Shown: positions 3,225 through 10,857 of the stretch, piece by piece
Layout of the letters: the number at the start of each line of letters is the position of its first letter
How positions within the stretch are numbered: the first letter of the stretch is position 1
Assembly: GCA_016930515.1 (NCBI GenBank)
Contig: JAFGGO010000109.1
Span: 1-21,033, forward strand
Reading direction: 5' to 3'
From: Promethearchaeota archaeon
GTDB taxonomy: Archaea > Asgardarchaeota > Lokiarchaeia > Sigyniarchaeales > SOKP01
DNA: 21,033 nucleotides
Notes under the pieces: generated by a model
What the model saw: the letters and a program-made list of their open reading frames with translations, nothing else
Databases searched by the model: none
Told to the model about the DNA's origin: nothing
Translations under genes and position numbers: made by a program

Positions 3225-3917
3225 ATGTATGAATTAATATCGTTTGAAGATCTCAATAAAAGAATCGAGCAGGTGGATAATGCTTATTTTAAAAAAGTAT
3301 TCTCAGAACAAGCAAGTATTCTCAAGGCAAAAGAATGTTATATCCATCAAGGAGATCTTGAAGTTGATGGCGTGTTTGCTTCTGAAAAACAGATTCTTAT
3401 CGTTGATGGCAACCTCATCGTGAACGGCCTTTTTCTTGATCGCGTTCGAGGGCATTGGGATAGTTCTGTCCTAATCGTGTTAGGCGATGTGAACTGTACG
3501 AATTTATGCAATTCATATCATTCAGATATTTACATCTTAGGAAAGCTAAAAGTATCCGAGCTACTTTATTTATCAGCTCCAGATTCGATAACTCAGATAT
3601 TCAATTCAGTTGAAGCAAAATATATCAATGGAATGTGGATAACTGCTTACGATTCCGTGAAAGCGGATATTATTGAATCTTACATTCAGGACGGAATTAC
3701 TAAAAAGAAAAAGGTTATCAAGCCAAATCTCCAAGGTGTAAAACTTAGTCGAGTTTTAATTGACGATGTATTAAATTTCGAGGAATGGGATCAAATGGAC
3801 CAAGAAGAGCAGGAAGCCATGATTAATGATGCAAAAAGTAAATACGATTATTGTTTAATTGATGATAAAAAGCTTAAAGAAGTCCTTTCCCAAAGTAGAA
3901 CCGTCATTAAGAAATAA
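3225..3917 (+). CDS. Hypothetical protein with beta-helix-like (bactofilin/polymer-forming-like) repeats; ORF track starts at GTG 3183, ATG 3225 preferred
   Basis: Repeats 'HQGDLEVDG', 'LIVDGNLIVNG', 'LIVLGDVNCTNL', 'IYILGKLKVSEL', 'QIFNSVEAKYI'. Confidence 0.6.
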   Translation: MYELISFEDLNKRIEQVDNAYFKKVFSEQASILKAKECYIHQGDLEVDGVFASEKQILIVDGNLIVNGLFLDRVRGHWDSSVLIVLGDVNCTNLCNSYHSDIYILGKLKVSELLYLSAPDSITQIFNSVEAKYINGMWITAYDSVKADIIESYIQDGITKKKKVIKPNLQGVKLSRVLIDDVLNFEEWDQMDQEEQEAMINDAKSKYDYCLIDDKKLKEVLSQSRTVIKK

Positions 3918-3982
3918 ATTAGCAATTTATTTTTTTAAACCAGTAATTCATTATGCAGAATAAAAAAATAATTTATCTTCAA

Positions 3983-4583
3983 TTAAACACCCTTTTTCTT
4001 CAATTTTTCCTTATCGTAGTGAAATCGCTCTGTCGAAATACGATCTTTTTTTTTTCCGTTTTCTTTCTTTAAATTTTGAGGATCTATCAGTTTCTTGCAA
4101 ATTTCAATGCGGTTTTCCTCAAATTCCTTGTGAATTATATTATGAGTGAGCGAATTTCCAATCAAAATTCCACAAAAGCAAATTATGTATATAATTGAAG
4201 CAATCCATAAAAATCCAAAATCAATATCTGAAACGGAGGATTGTTTATAGATCGAATCAGGTCTATGAGAAAGAAAGATTGAAAAGGTAATGAGAAGAAT
4301 TATCAATATAAAGCAAGTTAAGGAGATGTAGAATGCTCAATTTATGGTATTTTCGCTATTATCGTATTTTTTTGCTTATCCTATTTAAGATTTGCTCATT
4401 TTTTGCGCTTAATATTTCTTGATGTTCTTTACATAATCCATTATGGTTGCACGGCGCTCATAATTTTTTCTTGCATACAACACATTGAAATATGGTTTTT
4501 GACCTTATTTCGAAATTACACGACTCGCAATTATACACATAGATAGGACTTTCGTATGGTTCGGGAATAAAACCGTCATTCAT
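3983..4583 (-). pseudogene. Disrupted zinc-finger plus 2-TM membrane protein; track ORF 3983..4306 is its 3' part
   Basis: ATG 4583: MNDGFIPEPYESPIYVYNCESCNFEIRSKTIFQCVVCKKKL*APCNHNGLCKEHQEILSAKNEQILNRISKK. A 1-nt shift at A7 (4367-4373) gives YDNSENTIN*AFYISLTCFILIILL..., joining the track ORF. In-frame TGA at 4458-4460 and 4337-4339. Confidence 0.75.
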
Positions 4584-4821
4584 ATGATTTTCTTTGAATT
4601 GATTTTGTATCTTTCAAATTAATAAGAATTATTTGCTTATTTAAGCATTAGCTTTATAAAATTTAAAGTACCTAAAAATTGTCGTGAATATGTTAAAACA
4701 AGTATCGTGAATAGCACGAGAATTTAAAAAATCCTTATAGGTATGATAAAGTGAAATTTAATTTATGTAAAATAAAGAAATAATAAGAAAAAAAATAATA
4801 TAGGAAAGATTGCTTGCCCGA

Positions 4822-6792
4822 TTACACTTTCATGTTTTTTCGGGCTGCCAGCAAGTCTTCTACGACGGACGGATCGGCCAAGGTGGTCGTGTTGCCAACA
4901 TCGTCTCCAGACGCTATGGCTTTCAAGATCCTTCTCATGATCTTTCCGCTTCTCGTCTTTGGTAAGGCGTCAGCGAATTGAACGACGTCTGGTTGGAACA
5001 CGGGTCCAATTTCTTTCCTGACGTGCATCTTGATTTCTTGCATCAAGGCGTCAGTCTTTTCAACACCCTTCATCAAGGTGACATATGCCCAGATGGCCTG
5101 ACCCTTGATTTCGTGTGGGAACGGAGCAACAGCCGCTTCTGCGACCTTTGGATGGCTTACGATGGCTGATTCGACTTCCATGGTTCCGATTCGGTGTCCG
5201 GATACCTTGATGACATCGTCGAGCCTGCCCAAGATCCAGTAGTAACCGTCTTCGTCTCGACGAGCGCCGTCTCCAGTATAGTAATATCCTGGATATCTGT
5301 TCAAGTAGGTCTCCTTGAATCGCTCGTCGTCGCCCCATACCGTTCGCAACATGCCTGGCCAGGGTTGAGCCATGCAGAAGTAGCCTCCCTCGTTTGCTTC
5401 GGTAACCTCTACGCCTTCAGTGTCGAAAATGATGGGTTTGATACCTAACGCTGGTAAGCAGCAAGAGCCTGGTTTTGTGGGCGTGGCCGTGGCGATGGGG
5501 GTCATGATGAATCCACCCGTTTCGGTTTGCCAATACGTGTCAACTATAGGGCATTTACCTTTTCCAACGACGTTGTGGTACCAGATCCACGCTTCGGGAT
5601 TGATTGGCTCGCCGACCGTGCCTAATACTCTCAATGAACTGAGGTCGTGCTTGAGCACGGGCTCGTCGCCGTTACCCATCAAGGCTCTGATGGCGGTAGG
5701 TGCGGTATAAAATTGCGTGACTTTGTGCTTTTCGCAAATATCCCAGAACCTGTCCACATCGGGGTAGGTTGGCACGCTTTCGAACATAAGGGTCGTGGCA
5801 CCGTTTGCGAGAGGACCGTAAACGATGTAACTGTGGCCAGTAATCCAACCAATGTCAGCTGTACAATACCACACATCTCCTTCCTTGTAGTTAAACACAT
5901 ATTTGTGCGTGAAAGAGGTATAAAGAATGTATCCTGCGGTGGTGTGCTTGACTCCTTTAGGCTTTCCAGTCGTACCGCTGGTGTAAAGGATGAATAAGGT
6001 ATCTTCGGAATCCATTTCTTCGCATGGACAATCTTCTGAAACGCCCGCAACGAAGTCATCATACATGATGTCTTTTTTAGTGTGTGGAACATCGCTTCCG
6101 GTGTGCTTTACGACTATCACGTGTTCGATGGTAGGACAATCGTCTATGATTTGGACAACATCTGTCATCTTGGGGTATTTCTTACCGCCCCTCAAGGTCT
6201 CGTCGCACGTGAATAACAAACGAGAGTTCGAGTCTTCAATCCTGTCTTTAACGGCTTCTTTTGAGAAACCACCAAATACGATTGAATGGATGACTCCAAT
6301 TCGAGCACAGGCCAACATGACGATTGCGAGCGAAGGAATCATTGGGAGCCAGATCGTGACTCGGTCTCCTTTTTTTAAGCCTAACTTTTTCATTCCATTT
6401 GCGCACTTGCTTATTTCCTTTTGAAGGTCGCTAAAGGTGAATTTCTGAACGTTTCCAGGTTCGTCAGCTTCAAAAATTAAGGCAACGTGATCGCCTTTTC
6501 CGTTTTTCACGTGTCGGTCGACGCAGTTATAGCAAACATTAAGTTTTCCGCCGGTAAACCACTTTCCTGGGAACATTTCCGATTTTTCCCATGCCTTATC
6601 GAAGGGCTTGAACCAATCGAGGGATTTAGCCTGTTCTGCCCAAAATCCTTCCATGTCATCGATGGATTGTTGCCATAATTTTTTGTATTCGTCGAAGGAC
6701 ATTCCGGTTTTTGCGTAGTCCGAATTTAAATCAACTGGGTTGAATTTTCGTCCTTCTTTGAGAATAGATTTTACTATCTTGTCATCTGACAT
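4822..6792 (-). CDS. acs: Acetyl-CoA synthetase (acetate--CoA ligase, AMP-forming); start ATG 6792 or GTG 6801
   Basis: 'ILYTSGTTGKPKGVKH', 'ADIGWITGHSY', 'TVGEPINPEAW', 'DTYWQTETGG', 'YYTGDGA', 'LPKTRSGKIMRR'. Confidence 0.97.
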   Translation of the reverse strand: MSDDKIVKSILKEGRKFNPVDLNSDYAKTGMSFDEYKKLWQQSIDDMEGFWAEQAKSLDWFKPFDKAWEKSEMFPGKWFTGGKLNVCYNCVDRHVKNGKGDHVALIFEADEPGNVQKFTFSDLQKEISKCANGMKKLGLKKGDRVTIWLPMIPSLAIVMLACARIGVIHSIVFGGFSKEAVKDRIEDSNSRLLFTCDETLRGGKKYPKMTDVVQIIDDCPTIEHVIVVKHTGSDVPHTKKDIMYDDFVAGVSEDCPCEEMDSEDTLFILYTSGTTGKPKGVKHTTAGYILYTSFTHKYVFNYKEGDVWYCTADIGWITGHSYIVYGPLANGATTLMFESVPTYPDVDRFWDICEKHKVTQFYTAPTAIRALMGNGDEPVLKHDLSSLRVLGTVGEPINPEAWIWYHNVVGKGKCPIVDTYWQTETGGFIMTPIATATPTKPGSCCLPALGIKPIIFDTEGVEVTEANEGGYFCMAQPWPGMLRTVWGDDERFKETYLNRYPGYYYTGDGARRDEDGYYWILGRLDDVIKVSGHRIGTMEVESAIVSHPKVAEAAVAPFPHEIKGQAIWAYVTLMKGVEKTDALMQEIKMHVRKEIGPVFQPDVVQFADALPKTRSGKIMRRILKAIASGDDVGNTTTLADPSVVEDLLAARKNMKV

Positions 6793-6922
6793 TTTTTTCA
6801 CTTTTTTGTGTTGTTTGAATTTAAATTCTTATTTTTCATTGAAATCAGAATGATATGAAAAATACGGTAGAAATTTTAAACTTTATCGATGTGCAATATT
6901 AAGAAAAAGGATTTCAAGCGCA

Positions 6923-7095
6923 ATATCGATATAATCGAAAAATTCGTTCCAAAAATTCTCAATACTCACGCCCTATATAGAACAAAATTCGCGGGATCGA
7001 ACACGAATCCTAATAAAATCTATTAAAAAATATTTGAGATACGCGCGATTACCGTTAAAATGTTGCGAAAGGAGTAACCATCGAAAAATTCGTTC
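6923..7095. promoter_or_regulatory. Putative operator pair in the divergent acs intergenic region
   Basis: Exact 16-bp direct repeat ATCGAAAAATTCGTTC at 6934-6949 and 7080-7095 (core CGAA-N3-TTCG dyad). Palindrome ATATCGATAT at 6923-6932. Confidence 0.55.
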
Positions 7096-7275
7096 AAATA
7101 TAATCATTTTTAGTATTAGAAATGATCGCGATCTGTTATTAGAATTAAAACAATCCCGTTAAAGGTTATTTATTATTCTCCTTTCAAGAACAATTAATTT
7201 CTTATAAGCCATATATTTTTCTTCACGCGTGAAATATTATTTATCACATCAAAACCGAGGGGGTGTAAAGAAAAA

Positions 7276-7512
7276 ATGAGTAAAAAATACGAACGTAAAA
7301 TAAAAAACTTAAAAGAGCACGAATATGATACAGAAATGCCCTTAGATCTGGAACACGATTACGATCGTGTAAAGGGTCGAGAAATAAAAGAGGAACCAAC
7401 ATTCATGACCAATTTTGAAGATAAAAATAAAAGTAGACGAAATTCCAAGGAATTTAAAAAAAAAATGCAAAGAATTCCAACGAAATTCGAAAAGAGTAAA
7501 AAAATTTGGTAA
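7276..7512 (+). CDS. Small Lys-rich, probably disordered hypothetical protein
   Basis: 78-aa ORF with 17 Lys, an acidic middle and basic ends. G-rich SD-like GAGGGGGTG lies upstream and T-rich sequence downstream. Confidence 0.65.
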   Translation: MSKKYERKIKNLKEHEYDTEMPLDLEHDYDRVKGREIKEEPTFMTNFEDKNKSRRNSKEFKKKMQRIPTKFEKSKKIW

Positions 7513-7726
7513 AATAAATTAAAGACCCAAATTTGATAATTATTTAAAAAAATTCTTTCTCTTTGGCCCTACAAGTACACTAATTAGAGTTGTATTAATT
7601 CGTTAATATCAAAAGATGATACATGAATAGAATATTATTTAACTGAAACTATTATATGTAACCTCATTTAATAATTCATATAATAGAACCAAATTTTACT
7701 GTAAATATAGAAATTTTATACATAGC

Positions 7727-9616
7727 ATGCAAGTTAAAAGTACGGGAGAAAATTGGAGAAAAGAATGGGTCCAAAAGGAGATTACACCCGAGGAAGCTAT
7801 TAAAAAAATCATCCCCGGGAATCGAATCTTTATCGGGACTGGATGCGCAGAACCGCAAGCGCTCACGAAGGAGCTTATCAAGCAGTCAGAATCGCTACTC
7901 GATACGGAAATCATCCATTTCCTCACTATTTGGCCTGAAAAATATTTTACTGATAAAGAAGAAGACCTTTTTCGCCACAACGCTTTTTTTATTGGGGGTG
8001 CCTTGAGAGAAGAAATTAACAAGGGACAATCGGATTATACACCCATTTACGCGAGTGAAATCCCTGGATTATTTGTTTCGGGAAAACGGTATGTGGATGT
8101 CGCATTGGTTCAAATCACTCCCCCCGACAAGTTTGGTTTCTGTTCACTTGGCATTAATGTTGACATTTCTAAACCCATTGCCCAATCAGCTTATCTAACC
8201 ATTGCAGAAATAAATCCTCAAATGCCTCGAACTTTAGGAAGTAGCACGATTCACATGAAAGAAATTGATTATTTTGTTTACAACGATGTTCCACTCATGG
8301 AATACGAATTTAAAGAACGAGATGTTTCAGATTTAATAGGTCAAAATGTAGCAAATCTCGTAGAAAATAAATCGACCATTCATGTTGGTTTTGGAACACT
8401 TCCGAACGCTTGCTTGAAATATTTATTTGATAAAAGAGATCTTGGAATGCACAGTCATTTTCTTACCGATAACATCATCCCACTCATAGAAAAGGGCGTA
8501 CTCACGTGTCGAAAAAAAAATTTTCATCCAGAAAAAATAATTACAAGTTTCGTGCTAGGCACTAAAAAATTATATAACTTTATTAATCTAAATCCTTACA
8601 TCGAATTTTTTCCCACGGATTATGTATGCAATCCTAACATAATTAGTCAGAACAAGAAAATGGTGTCTATTTGTCAGGCTTTCGAAATCGACATTACGGG
8701 ACAAGTAAACGCATCTACCAAGGGATACAAATTCTATTCTGGTATTGGAGACAATGTGGATTTCATGCGTGGTGCGGCCTTATCAAAAGGCGGAAAACCC
8801 ATTATCGTGCTCCCCTCTACCACATTGAACGGAAAAAAATCTAAAATTGTGGCACAATTAGAAAAAGGTGCAGGTGTAATCCTACCACGAGCTGATGTGC
8901 ACTATGTAGTCACCGAATGGGGCGTTGCGAACTTGCACGGTAAAACTATTAGGGATAGGGTCTTAGCTCTTATTTGTATCGCTCACCCAAAATTTCGGCC
9001 AGAACTTTTAGAACAAGCCAAGGAATTGAATTACATTTACACGGATCAATTACTTGCTTGTGACGAAGAAGGAAATATTTGTATATACCCAAAACAATAC
9101 GAAACATCTTTTCACACGAGAGATAAGCATAAAATACATGTTCGTCCTTTAAAAACCACGGACGAGGCACCCTTAAAAGAGCTTTATTATTCCCTTAATG
9201 AAAGAGACCGATACTTACGATATTTTGAAATAAAGAAGGAATTTCTTCATTCAAAAACGCAAGACGAGGTTAACATCGATTATGAGAATGCTTTCTCAAT
9301 AGGTGCATTCGTGGGGGATTTTCCCGACCAAGAAATGATAGGTACTGCTTCGTATCACCTTAATAAAAAAATCAACATGGCTGAATTTGACTTCATAATT
9401 AAGAAACAATGGCGAGGGTACGGTCTGGGGTCATTTCTCCTTCATCACATGATCATCATCGCAAAGGAAAAAGGCGTTAAGGGCTTTTTTGGTAACATAC
9501 ACATTGAAAACAAGGATACCATTCATATTTTCAAGAAATTGGGTAACCTCAAGGTGACTCCACCAGCAGAGGGTGAAAAAGAGCTTTATTTCGAGTTAGT
9601 TTTTGAAAAGGAATAG
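7727..9616 (+). CDS. Acetyl-CoA hydrolase/CoA-transferase domain fused to a Pat-type GNAT lysine acetyltransferase
   Basis: N-terminal part: 'DVALVQITPPDKFGFCSLG', 'AEINPQMPRTLG', 'DFMRGAALSKGGKPII', 'DVHYVVTEWGVANLHGK', 'IAHPKFR'. C-terminal part: 'IHVRPL..DE..L', 'RYLRYF', 'AEF', motif A 'QWRGYGLG'. Confidence 0.92.
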   Translation: MQVKSTGENWRKEWVQKEITPEEAIKKIIPGNRIFIGTGCAEPQALTKELIKQSESLLDTEIIHFLTIWPEKYFTDKEEDLFRHNAFFIGGALREEINKGQSDYTPIYASEIPGLFVSGKRYVDVALVQITPPDKFGFCSLGINVDISKPIAQSAYLTIAEINPQMPRTLGSSTIHMKEIDYFVYNDVPLMEYEFKERDVSDLIGQNVANLVENKSTIHVGFGTLPNACLKYLFDKRDLGMHSHFLTDNIIPLIEKGVLTCRKKNFHPEKIITSFVLGTKKLYNFINLNPYIEFFPTDYVCNPNIISQNKKMVSICQAFEIDITGQVNASTKGYKFYSGIGDNVDFMRGAALSKGGKPIIVLPSTTLNGKKSKIVAQLEKGAGVILPRADVHYVVTEWGVANLHGKTIRDRVLALICIAHPKFRPELLEQAKELNYIYTDQLLACDEEGNICIYPKQYETSFHTRDKHKIHVRPLKTTDEAPLKELYYSLNERDRYLRYFEIKKEFLHSKTQDEVNIDYENAFSIGAFVGDFPDQEMIGTASYHLNKKINMAEFDFIIKKQWRGYGLGSFLLHHMIIIAKEKGVKGFFGNIHIENKDTIHIFKKLGNLKVTPPAEGEKELYFELVFEKE

Positions 9617-9657: not shown

Positions 9658-10857
9658 ATGACCAACTATAATGTGGGTCTTTATTTCACGGACGAATATT
9701 ACGAGTACAACTTCGGAAATACGCACCCTTTAAGACCGCTAAGATTGGAGCTAACATATAGCTTGATTAAGAAACTGGGCTTGCTCGAAAACAAGTTACT
9801 CCATGTCTTTAAACCGCGCCATTGCACAGAAGAAGAATTAACGAGAGTTCATTCGCCCAATTATGTTCAGGTCATTCAAAAGCTCAGCGTTGATCCAAAC
9901 GATACATCGGTTAGACCTTATAGTTATGGATTGGGTCCAGGAGACAATCCTATTTTCAAGGGCATGTACGAATCGTCGACGTTAATCTGTGGAGCGAGTC
10001 TACAAGCGGCAGAAAAGGTTTTTCTTGACGAAGAATATCCAATTACTTTCAACCCAGCTGGCGGACTACATCACGCAATGCGAAATCACGCATCGGGTTT
10101 TTGCATATTTAACGACATTGGCGTTGCGATCGCCCATCTTAAAACATTAAAAGAAGATATAAAAATTGCATATTTGGATATCGATTGCCACCATGGTGAT
10201 GGCGTTCAATGGATGTTTTACGACGATCCGAATGTTCTTACCATATCCTACCACGAAGACGGAAGGTATTTATTTCCTGGGACAGGAACGATTGAAGAAA
10301 CAGGGAAGAACAGTGGTGCAGGGTTTTCAATTAACTTTCCTCTCCAGCGATGGACTACGGATAAGATTTTTCTTAATTTATTCAGGGGAACATTTCCTAA
10401 GATCCTTGAAACCTACCAACCGGACATTCTCATATCCCAACTTGGAGTTGATACGCACCATCTTGACCCGCTCACTCAAATGGGCTTATCACTCTCCGTA
10501 TATCCCGATATTGCCCAGACTATTAAAACCACGGCAAAAGAATATGCTTATAATCGTTGGCTTGCATTGGGTGGAGGCGGTTATCTAATGAGCGTTGTAC
10601 CGCGAGCATGGGCTCTATTTTTGGCAAAAATGCTCGATGTTGAGTTGGAAAATAAACTTCCAGAGGAATGGTATCAAGAATTTAAAAATAAAGTGCCTTT
10701 TGAAAAAGCACCCTTTTATTTATGGGACAGGGCCGACGAGATCCAGAGAAAAATGCTAGCCGATCCCGAAATAGCTCAAAAAATGGTTGAACATAGGAAC
10801 ACTCTAATAAAGATTTGTGAAGAAAAATACATTCCTGCAATAATCTCGCATAGGTAA
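9658..10857 (+). CDS. acuC: AcuC/HDAC-family Zn-dependent protein deacetylase
   Basis: 'HPLRPLRL', 'GPGDNP', 'AGGLHHA', 'SGFCIFND', 'DIDCHHGDG', 'LFPGTG', 'QLGVDTH..DPL', 'GGGGY'. Starts 41 bp after the GNAT fusion on the same strand. Confidence 0.92.
   Translation: MTNYNVGLYFTDEYYEYNFGNTHPLRPLRLELTYSLIKKLGLLENKLLHVFKPRHCTEEELTRVHSPNYVQVIQKLSVDPNDTSVRPYSYGLGPGDNPIFKGMYESSTLICGASLQAAEKVFLDEEYPITFNPAGGLHHAMRNHASGFCIFNDIGVAIAHLKTLKEDIKIAYLDIDCHHGDGVQWMFYDDPNVLTISYHEDGRYLFPGTGTIEETGKNSGAGFSINFPLQRWTTDKIFLNLFRGTFPKILETYQPDILISQLGVDTHHLDPLTQMGLSLSVYPDIAQTIKTTAKEYAYNRWLALGGGGYLMSVVPRAWALFLAKMLDVELENKLPEEWYQEFKNKVPFEKAPFYLWDRADEIQRKMLADPEIAQKMVEHRNTLIKICEEKYIPAIISHR

Follow-up and report, generated by a model that had tools for sequence, protein, structure and literature searches.

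In the window analysed here (21,033 nucleotides of Promethearchaeota archaeon, assembly GCA_016930515.1, contig JAFGGO010000109.1, positions 1 to 21,033), one gene fuses a domain related to 4-hydroxybutyrate coenzyme A (CoA)-transferases to a Pat-type GNAT acetyltransferase domain. All three catalytic positions of class I CoA-transferases are replaced in this fusion: the nucleophilic Glu by His244, the Asn of the internal oxyanion hole by Cys301 and the Gly of the external oxyanion hole by Asp342. Judging from these residues, canonical CoA transfer by the N-terminal domain has almost certainly been lost, since the glutamyl-CoA ping-pong reaction would not be possible with Glu, Asn and Gly all replaced. 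Reversible lysine acetylation of acetyl-CoA synthetase (Acs) is a textbook bacterial circuit, and its archaeal, above all its Asgard, forms are poorly known. The reading that we favour, with a probability of about 0.6, is that the fusion is a Pat-like acetyltransferase of Lys620 of the divergently encoded Acs and that its N-terminal domain serves as a non-transferase, ligand-binding regulatory module. The features concerned are listed in Table 1.

Table 1. Position of the fusion gene, its domains and key codons, and of the adjoining acs and deacetylase genes in the window.
Feature	Position	Strand	Basis
CoA-transferase-like and Pat-type GNAT fusion gene, 629 amino acids	7727..9616	+	Open reading frame; Pfam; 141 full-length orthologue clusters at 60-86% identity
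4-Hydroxybutyrate-CoA-transferase-like domain, residues 1-440	7727..9046	+	PDB matches; AlphaFold2 model; fit to 3gk7_A
His244 codon CAT, nucleophile-Glu position (AbfT Glu238, AarC Glu294, RipA Glu249)	8456..8458	+	Ungapped alignment
Cys301 codon TGC, internal oxyanion-hole Asn position (AarC Asn347)	8627..8629	+	Alignment
Asp342 codon GAC, external oxyanion-hole Gly position (second G of GGQ, AarC Gly388)	8750..8752	+	Alignment
Pat-type GNAT domain, residues 471-629	9137..9613	+	Pfam; PDB; NCBIfam acetyltransferase Pat
Glu553 codon, equivalent of PatZ Glu809 and SlPatA Glu123 (proposed catalytic base)	9383..9385	+	Alignment, 141/141 clusters
R-G-Y-G-L-G, residues 563-568, acetyl-CoA pyrophosphate-binding loop (Q/R-x-x-G-x-G/A)	9413..9430	+	Sequence
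AMP-forming acetyl-CoA synthetase gene (acs), divergent	4822..6801	-	NCBIfam acetate--CoA ligase, 4.9e-293
Lys620 codon of Acs in P-K-T-R-S-G-K-I-M-R-R, acetylation-site lysine (S. enterica Lys609)	4942..4944	-	Motif
Class I HDAC-type (AcuC-like) deacetylase gene, 41 nt downstream of the fusion	9658..10857	+	Pfam Hist_deacetyl, 6.2e-83

Replacement and conservation of the catalytic positions

The reading frame of the fusion is intact over its 629 codons, and Pfam analysis located AcetylCoA_hydro at residues 11-189, AcetylCoA_hyd_C at residues 278-431 and GNAT at residues 472-606. The N-terminus has the two-domain alpha/beta fold of PF02550 and PF13336 (4e-29 and 3.9e-60), and its best solved relatives are 4-hydroxybutyrate CoA-transferases (9vag at 1.7e-116 and 3gk7 at 3.5e-91). 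An AlphaFold2 model of residues 1-445, calculated from a deep alignment of 137 sequences, reached a mean predicted local distance difference test (pLDDT) value of 94.9. It superposed on 3gk7_A with a template-modelling (TM) score of 0.93 and a root-mean-square deviation (rmsd) of 2.2 A, and on the CoA complex 2oas_A with an rmsd of 1.6 A; a shallow run on 41 orthologues (pLDDT 67.9, loop 329-341 below 50) was set aside. The interdomain linker at residues 440-460 (about 9044-9106) holds clade-conserved residues including Cys445 and Cys452, and its conservation was 62% in the clade of the fusion against 78% in the paralogous clade described below.

Residues were mapped by phmmer alignments to five solved 4-hydroxybutyrate CoA-transferases, which were free of gaps over residues 215-360. 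The preliminary description of this DNA, made from the sequence alone, had reported two altered motifs, and both are present in the translation: D-L-G-M-H-S-H-F at residues 238-245, with His244, and S-G-I-G-D-N-V-D-F at residues 338-346, with Asp342. His244 aligns with the last residue of the conserved H-[ST]-E motif, a Glu that corresponds to residue 238 of 3gk7 from Clostridium aminobutyricum and that we take to be the catalytic one. The placement of His244 at the catalytic Glu position, proposed earlier, is thus borne out by the gap-free alignment to the C. aminobutyricum enzyme and by the fit of the model to its structure. Asp342 and Asn343 align with the second G and the Q of GGQ. A third replacement, beyond the two reported before, was found at Cys301, which stands in place of the Asn of the D-Y-V-N-D-P motif; in the solved enzymes the columns of 301 and 342/343 are occupied by Asn and GGQ.

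The roles of these positions can be read from AarC, a succinyl-CoA:acetate CoA-transferase that has been studied more closely than any other member of the subfamily. Alignments of the fusion with the three AarC chains start at residues 292/338, 297/343 and 299/345 (fusion/AarC), and because the offset is always 46 and the spacing of Asn347 and Gly388 in AarC equals that of Cys301 and Asp342 (41 residues), Cys301 corresponds to Asn347 and Asp342 to Gly388. In AarC, Glu294 is the nucleophile, the carboxamide of Asn347 provides the internal oxyanion hole and contacts and orients Glu294, and the backbone amide of Gly388, a residue described as strictly conserved across class I CoA-transferases, provides the external oxyanion hole, the two oxyanions lying less than 3 A apart (PMC4876117). 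The term catalytically dead, used for the domain in the preliminary description, is well supported for canonical CoA transfer, given the replacement of Glu and of the GGQ glycine; that the domain is dead for all chemistry, or that it senses acetyl-CoA, CoA or acetate as the description proposed, are wider claims, which would have to be inferred.

Conservation was examined in 141 orthologue clusters. Position 244 was occupied by His in 132 clusters, Tyr in 3, Gln in 3, Phe in 2 and Leu in 1, with Glu or Asp in none, so that the substitution is common to the whole clade; position 301 was Cys in 140 clusters and Ser in 1, and position 342 was Asp in 84 and Glu in 57. The same residues were found at the three sites in 20 orthologous loci from species-representative genomes, the GTDB genomes compared being a sample. 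By their database names, the near relatives belong to metagenome-assembled genomes of Promethearchaeota, Lokiarchaeota, Hodarchaeota and Hermodarchaeota. At these sites the orthologues draw on every synonymous codon for His (two), for Cys (two) and for the acids (four), and this variation argues that it is the amino acids that are conserved.

In a tree of 61 fusion proteins the His/Cys/acid clade was monophyletic, with a support of 100 in the Shimodaira-Hasegawa-like approximate likelihood ratio test (SH-aLRT), and its sister was a clade of paralogues, from the same GTDB family, in which Glu, Asn and GGQ are retained. This topology places the origin of the His clade in a duplication within one Asgard family. 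The genome of the window itself carries a Glu-retaining paralogue (contig C82 of G000, 6334-8232; 51% identity to the fusion), to which the preliminary description made no reference. Across the 18 genomes with both copies, identity of the CoA-transferase-like domain was 80.1% in the His clade and 81.6% in the Glu paralogue, and identity of the GNAT domain was 76.2% and 70.5%, respectively. The N-terminal domain gives no indication that constraint has been relaxed. Radical clade-specific differences are confined to positions 244, 301, 302 and 342/343, and the other family-wide near-invariant residues of the CoA-transferase fold are all kept, as had been stated earlier for the rest of the domain. 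The domain has therefore the two marks of a pseudoenzyme, loss of the catalytic residues and purifying selection on what remains.

Strain-specific decay, or an artefact of sequencing or assembly, would account for altered motifs in a single genome and can be set aside with near certainty: the substitutions recur in 141 clusters and 20 loci, their codons vary synonymously and the frame is intact. Decay is also countered by the domain identity of about 80% across genomes, which is on a par with that of the catalytic paralogue.

The GNAT domain and its putative target

The GNAT domain was recognised by PF00583 at 6.4e-09, and the best PDB matches of this part were PatZ (9it0 and 9isq) and Streptomyces lividans PatA (4nxy and 4u5y); it also matched the NCBIfam model for mycobacterial Pat. 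Glu553, aligned with residues of PatZ and S. lividans PatA whose roles have been described (PMC12184503), and Arg563 are each invariant in the 141 orthologue clusters. With Glu553 and the acetyl-CoA loop both retained, the earlier statement that the GNAT motifs are conserved stands, and the domain is best explained as a catalytically competent acetyltransferase, as far as its residues can tell. A database search with residues 445-629 alone returned the same clade only and no wider distribution.

A divergent acs gene, whose product carries the acetylation-site motif at Lys620, is the neighbour of the fusion in 11 of the 19 orthologous loci with enough flank, and acs genes also adjoin Glu-retaining fusions in other Asgard families. 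Acs is a likely substrate of the fusion GNAT on this genomic evidence. A complex was predicted from the GNAT part (residues 436-629) and the C-terminal domain of Acs (residues 525-659), together with three controls. It scored 0.75, against 0.16 for the best control, a value that may reflect memory of the model because a similar complex, 4U5Y, has been solved; the score mark applied is reached by 58 of 80 solved complexes and by 2 of 110 mismatched pairs. The GNAT-Acs runs shared at least 96% of their contacts, with a partner pLDDT of at least 89. In the predicted complex, Acs residues 616-624 lie in the GNAT cleft against GNAT residues 496-505, 542-555 and 588-594; Lys620 contacts residues 498-500, 555 and 590 beside Glu553, and Glu553 contacts Acs residues 616-618. 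The model thus places the two proteins in a likeness of the Pat-Acs pair.

Downstream of the fusion, the deacetylase gene has intact motifs (GGLHHA, DxHHGDG and GGGGY, with His-His, Asp-His-Asp and Tyr), and its product is the likely eraser of Acs acetylation. At the window locus acs is divergent from a gene for a GNAT writer that is accompanied by an HDAC-type eraser, as in an acsA-acuABC-like arrangement, and the order acs, fusion, HDAC and phosphoglucomutase is repeated in an 86%-identical relative. HDAC linkage as a general feature was rejected, since this adjacency was seen in the window and in that relative alone.

Several further observations were made on the locus and its counterparts. 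The best solved matches of the deacetylase were the eukaryotic class I enzymes HDAC2, HDAC1, HDAC3 and Rpd3 (1.6e-63), ahead of bacterial HDLP (5e-51). The G+C content of acs is 47.7%, rising to 0.55 in 150-nt windows, with 31-41% in neighbouring genes and about 24-31% in spacers; this composition could mean foreign origin or strong compositional constraint, and the gene is considered long resident in view of the 71-91% identity of its Asgard orthologues. In the 86%-identical relative (L063, 3331-5457) a gene of 708 amino acids lacking a Pfam match lies between acs and the fusion, where the window has an AT-rich spacer of 925 bp with no open reading frame of note. Rfam returned no RNA family anywhere in the window, this spacer included. 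The Glu-retaining paralogue on C82 is not beside acs and is followed by genes for an aldehyde:ferredoxin oxidoreductase and a 4Fe-4S ferredoxin (L023, 6334-10818); as a general linkage of the paralogue the oxidoreductase was rejected, being confined to its own genus (L023 and L043). A tandem pair of CoA-transferase-GNAT genes, both keeping Glu, Asn and Gly, lies beside acs in another Asgard family (L029, contig C64 of G170, 3247-7313).

Proposed mechanism and rival readings of the site

Under the favoured reading, the GNAT would acetylate Lys620 of the divergently encoded Acs and the co-oriented HDAC-type deacetylase would remove the acetyl mark. The N-terminal domain would no longer form the glutamyl-CoA intermediate and would be kept by strong selection as a non-transferase module. 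Most likely it would still bind CoA or acyl-CoA, and ligand-driven opening and closing of the fold would gate the GNAT and aid the docking of Acs, a role equal to that of the inactive nucleoside diphosphate (NDP)-forming acyl-CoA-synthetase-like domain in Pat/PatZ. Such a ligand switch is plausible because AarC deprived of its nucleophile closes completely around acyl-CoA analogues but is reluctant to do so around free CoA (PMC4876117), and because nucleophile-less mutants can bind CoA: AarC-E294A has been solved with CoA, and RipA E249A also folds, according to the structure titles. The parallel with the inactive regulatory domain of Pat, drawn in the preliminary description, fits the divergent acs with its Lys620, the downstream HDAC and the Pat-type GNAT residues. 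The analysis establishes the residue replacements and their conservation, the fold, the intact GNAT residues and the gene context; what we infer is that the domain binds a ligand, that it acts allosterically and that Acs is the target. A regulatory or ligand-sensing role of the N-terminal domain is probably the best reading of the analysis as a whole.

The wider family bears on this reading. A search of 1.84 billion cluster representatives gave about 11,000 relatives, the best 150 of which yielded 73 usable proteins with a GNAT and 65 without; the representatives are defined at 50% identity and are not independent, so changes were counted on a tree. Among these best 150, Glu, Asn and Gly were all intact in 27 of the 73 fusions against 46 of the 65 stand-alone proteins, and the state of the Glu changed at least 16 times in fusions against at least 3 times in stand-alone proteins. 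The GNAT Glu or an Asp was present in 66 of the 73 fusions. After fusion to a Pat-type GNAT the CoA-transferase domain thus appears often to be without its chemistry, and such frequent catalytic loss is expected if its main role there is not CoA transfer. Named members of the family include Thorarchaeota, Heimdallarchaeota, Desulfobacterales and Myxococcales.

Two groups of relatives were recorded on the side. A stand-alone 4-hydroxybutyrate-CoA-transferase-like subfamily of about 425 amino acids (12 of the 65 representatives, among them P0221, P0234, P0250, P0252 and P0258) has Gly for Glu and His for the oxyanion-hole Asn and keeps GGQ, apparently another remodelled site on this fold. The fusion relatives P0149, P0155, P0177, P0196 and P0255 are 955-1067 amino acids long, with about 330 extra residues; one is named from Myxococcales and several are without the catalytic Glu.

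Several findings weigh against a plain loss of function turned to regulation. The replacement residues of the His clade are conserved and not drifting, which a merely emptied site would not need. The nucleophilic Glu is kept in 43 of the 73 fusions, and the domain may still be an enzyme in many relatives. Cys at 301 was found in 14 of the 73 fusions but in 2 of the 65 stand-alone proteins, and for the fusions the tree requires no fewer than 12 changes. Among the best-150 representatives an acid at 342 occurred only where 244 is non-acidic, in six types of site (HCD, FSD, QND, GLD, PGE and PYE), a pairing that hints at compensation or new chemistry. The preliminary description had held that another Glu in the active site would speak against an inactive domain; the site is indeed not free of acids, for an Asp or Glu at the oxyanion-hole glycine now stands beside the former nucleophile in all 141 clusters. 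As to the locus, no HDAC adjoins the fusion in the other, more distant orthologous loci examined.

Some of these findings would be expected of a rewired site in which Cys301 is a new thiol nucleophile helped by His244 (or the invariant His242) and the acid at 342, forming an S-acyl enzyme or a mixed disulfide with CoA and making the domain a hydrolase, an acyl relay or a covalent acyl-CoA or redox sensor for the GNAT. The three positions meet at the AarC reaction centre, where the acyl-CoA thioester binds (PMC4876117). Cys301 is present in 140 of the 141 clusters and the acid at 342 in every one, the Asn-to-Cys change is recurrent in fusions and the domain is not under relaxed constraint. A strict Cys-His-acid triad would, however, hardly tolerate Phe, Tyr, Leu or Gln at position 244, as found in 9 of the 141 clusters, and the free exchange of Asp and Glu at 342 (84 against 57) would be uncommon at a position where catalysis demands exact placement; moreover, Cys at 301 also occurs in fusions that retain the Glu. 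We regard a rewired site, the chief rival of the favoured reading, as doubtful on balance. Equally tentative is its regulatory form, in which a CoA-transferase scaffold would have turned into a thiol-based covalent sensor and S-acylated or CoA-disulfide Cys301 would switch the Pat-type GNAT that controls Acs. If true, the repeated appearance of Cys for Asn in other CoA-transferase-GNAT fusions would point to a general mechanism.

The exchange of Asp and Glu fits a ligand or charge role, and the same residues, His244, Cys301, Asp or Glu342 and perhaps His242, are typical metal ligands clustered by homology. They might bind Zn or Fe, filling and rigidifying the former active site, and the domain would then serve as a scaffold on which the protein oligomerises and Acs docks, with no acyl-CoA sensing. 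PatZ depends on its regulatory domain to oligomerise, and the same domain gives the pocket for Acs its shape (PMC12184503). This is unlikely, considering that the 9 clusters without His244 include non-ligands such as Phe and Leu and that all other family invariants are kept, which suggests that the CoA site is still used. A last reading takes the acid at 342 as a relocated nucleophile, so that the domain would still transfer CoA or hydrolyse acyl-CoA, with its carboxylate at a new place. Position 342 adjoins the former nucleophile by homology, and the restriction of acids at 342 to sites with a non-acidic 244 would agree with it. A paired test on the tree, of an acid at 244 against an acid at 342, was underpowered and gave no significant result, with 2 of 8 independent pairs in the expected direction and a median p of 0.5. 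The acid takes the place of the glycine, described as strictly conserved, whose amide forms the external oxyanion hole (PMC4876117), the internal oxyanion-hole Asn is also gone and side chains as different in length as those of Asp and Glu are both accepted; a relocated nucleophile is accordingly a very improbable explanation.

Relation to known systems

Among described regulators, the fusion is closest in plan to Pat/PatZ (YfiQ) of type I and S. lividans PatA of type II. Like them it has a Pat-type GNAT with an N-terminal extension, the catalytic Glu and the P-loop, a large fused domain from an acyl-CoA-metabolising enzyme minus the catalytic residue of that enzyme, and an Acs with a P-x4-G-K lysine as the expected target, the predicted GNAT-Acs interface resembling 4U5Y. 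It differs in that its putative regulatory domain has the class I CoA-transferase fold, whereas theirs has the NDP-forming acyl-CoA synthetase fold. The fusion is Asgard archaeal and would probably work in the manner of Pat without being a member of type I or II. The regulatory domains of acetyltransferase types I-V comprise synthetase, cAMP, ACT and NADP types only (a 2021 review; the 2025 PatZ paper, PMC12184503), and because these lists are without the CoA-transferase fold, a regulatory domain of this kind falls outside the published classification. Full-text literature searches found no study of a CoA-transferase-GNAT fusion.

With the class I CoA-transferases AbfT (the 4-hydroxybutyrate CoA-transferase of 3gk7/3qdq), RipA and AarC the N-terminal domain shares the fold, 36-40% identity and the non-catalytic family invariants; the fusion differs from them by His, Cys and Asp for Glu, Asn and Gly, by its C-terminal GNAT and by a regulatory context (acs and deacetylase) in place of a fermentation pathway. 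The Bacillus subtilis acsA-acuABC locus likewise has acs divergent from an operon in which a GNAT acts as writer and a class I HDAC-type deacetylase as eraser (PMC8556138), but the writer here is a 629-amino-acid Pat-type fusion and not the small AcuA, AcuB is missing and the HDAC adjacency was seen in the genus of the window only. The Glu-retaining paralogue on C82 has the same architecture and length and belongs to the sister clade; it differs in keeping the catalytic residues and in its position away from acs. What is new here is an Asgard clade with a fixed His/Cys/acid set, a catalytic sister paralogue in the same genomes and writer, eraser and target at one locus.

The conserved His/Cys/acid replacement provides a concrete hypothesis that is open to mutagenesis. 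Together, the Glu-retaining paralogue and the repeated catalytic loss in the family form a natural series on the conversion of an enzyme domain into a regulatory one, and the same series asks whether acyl-CoA sensing still requires the chemistry.

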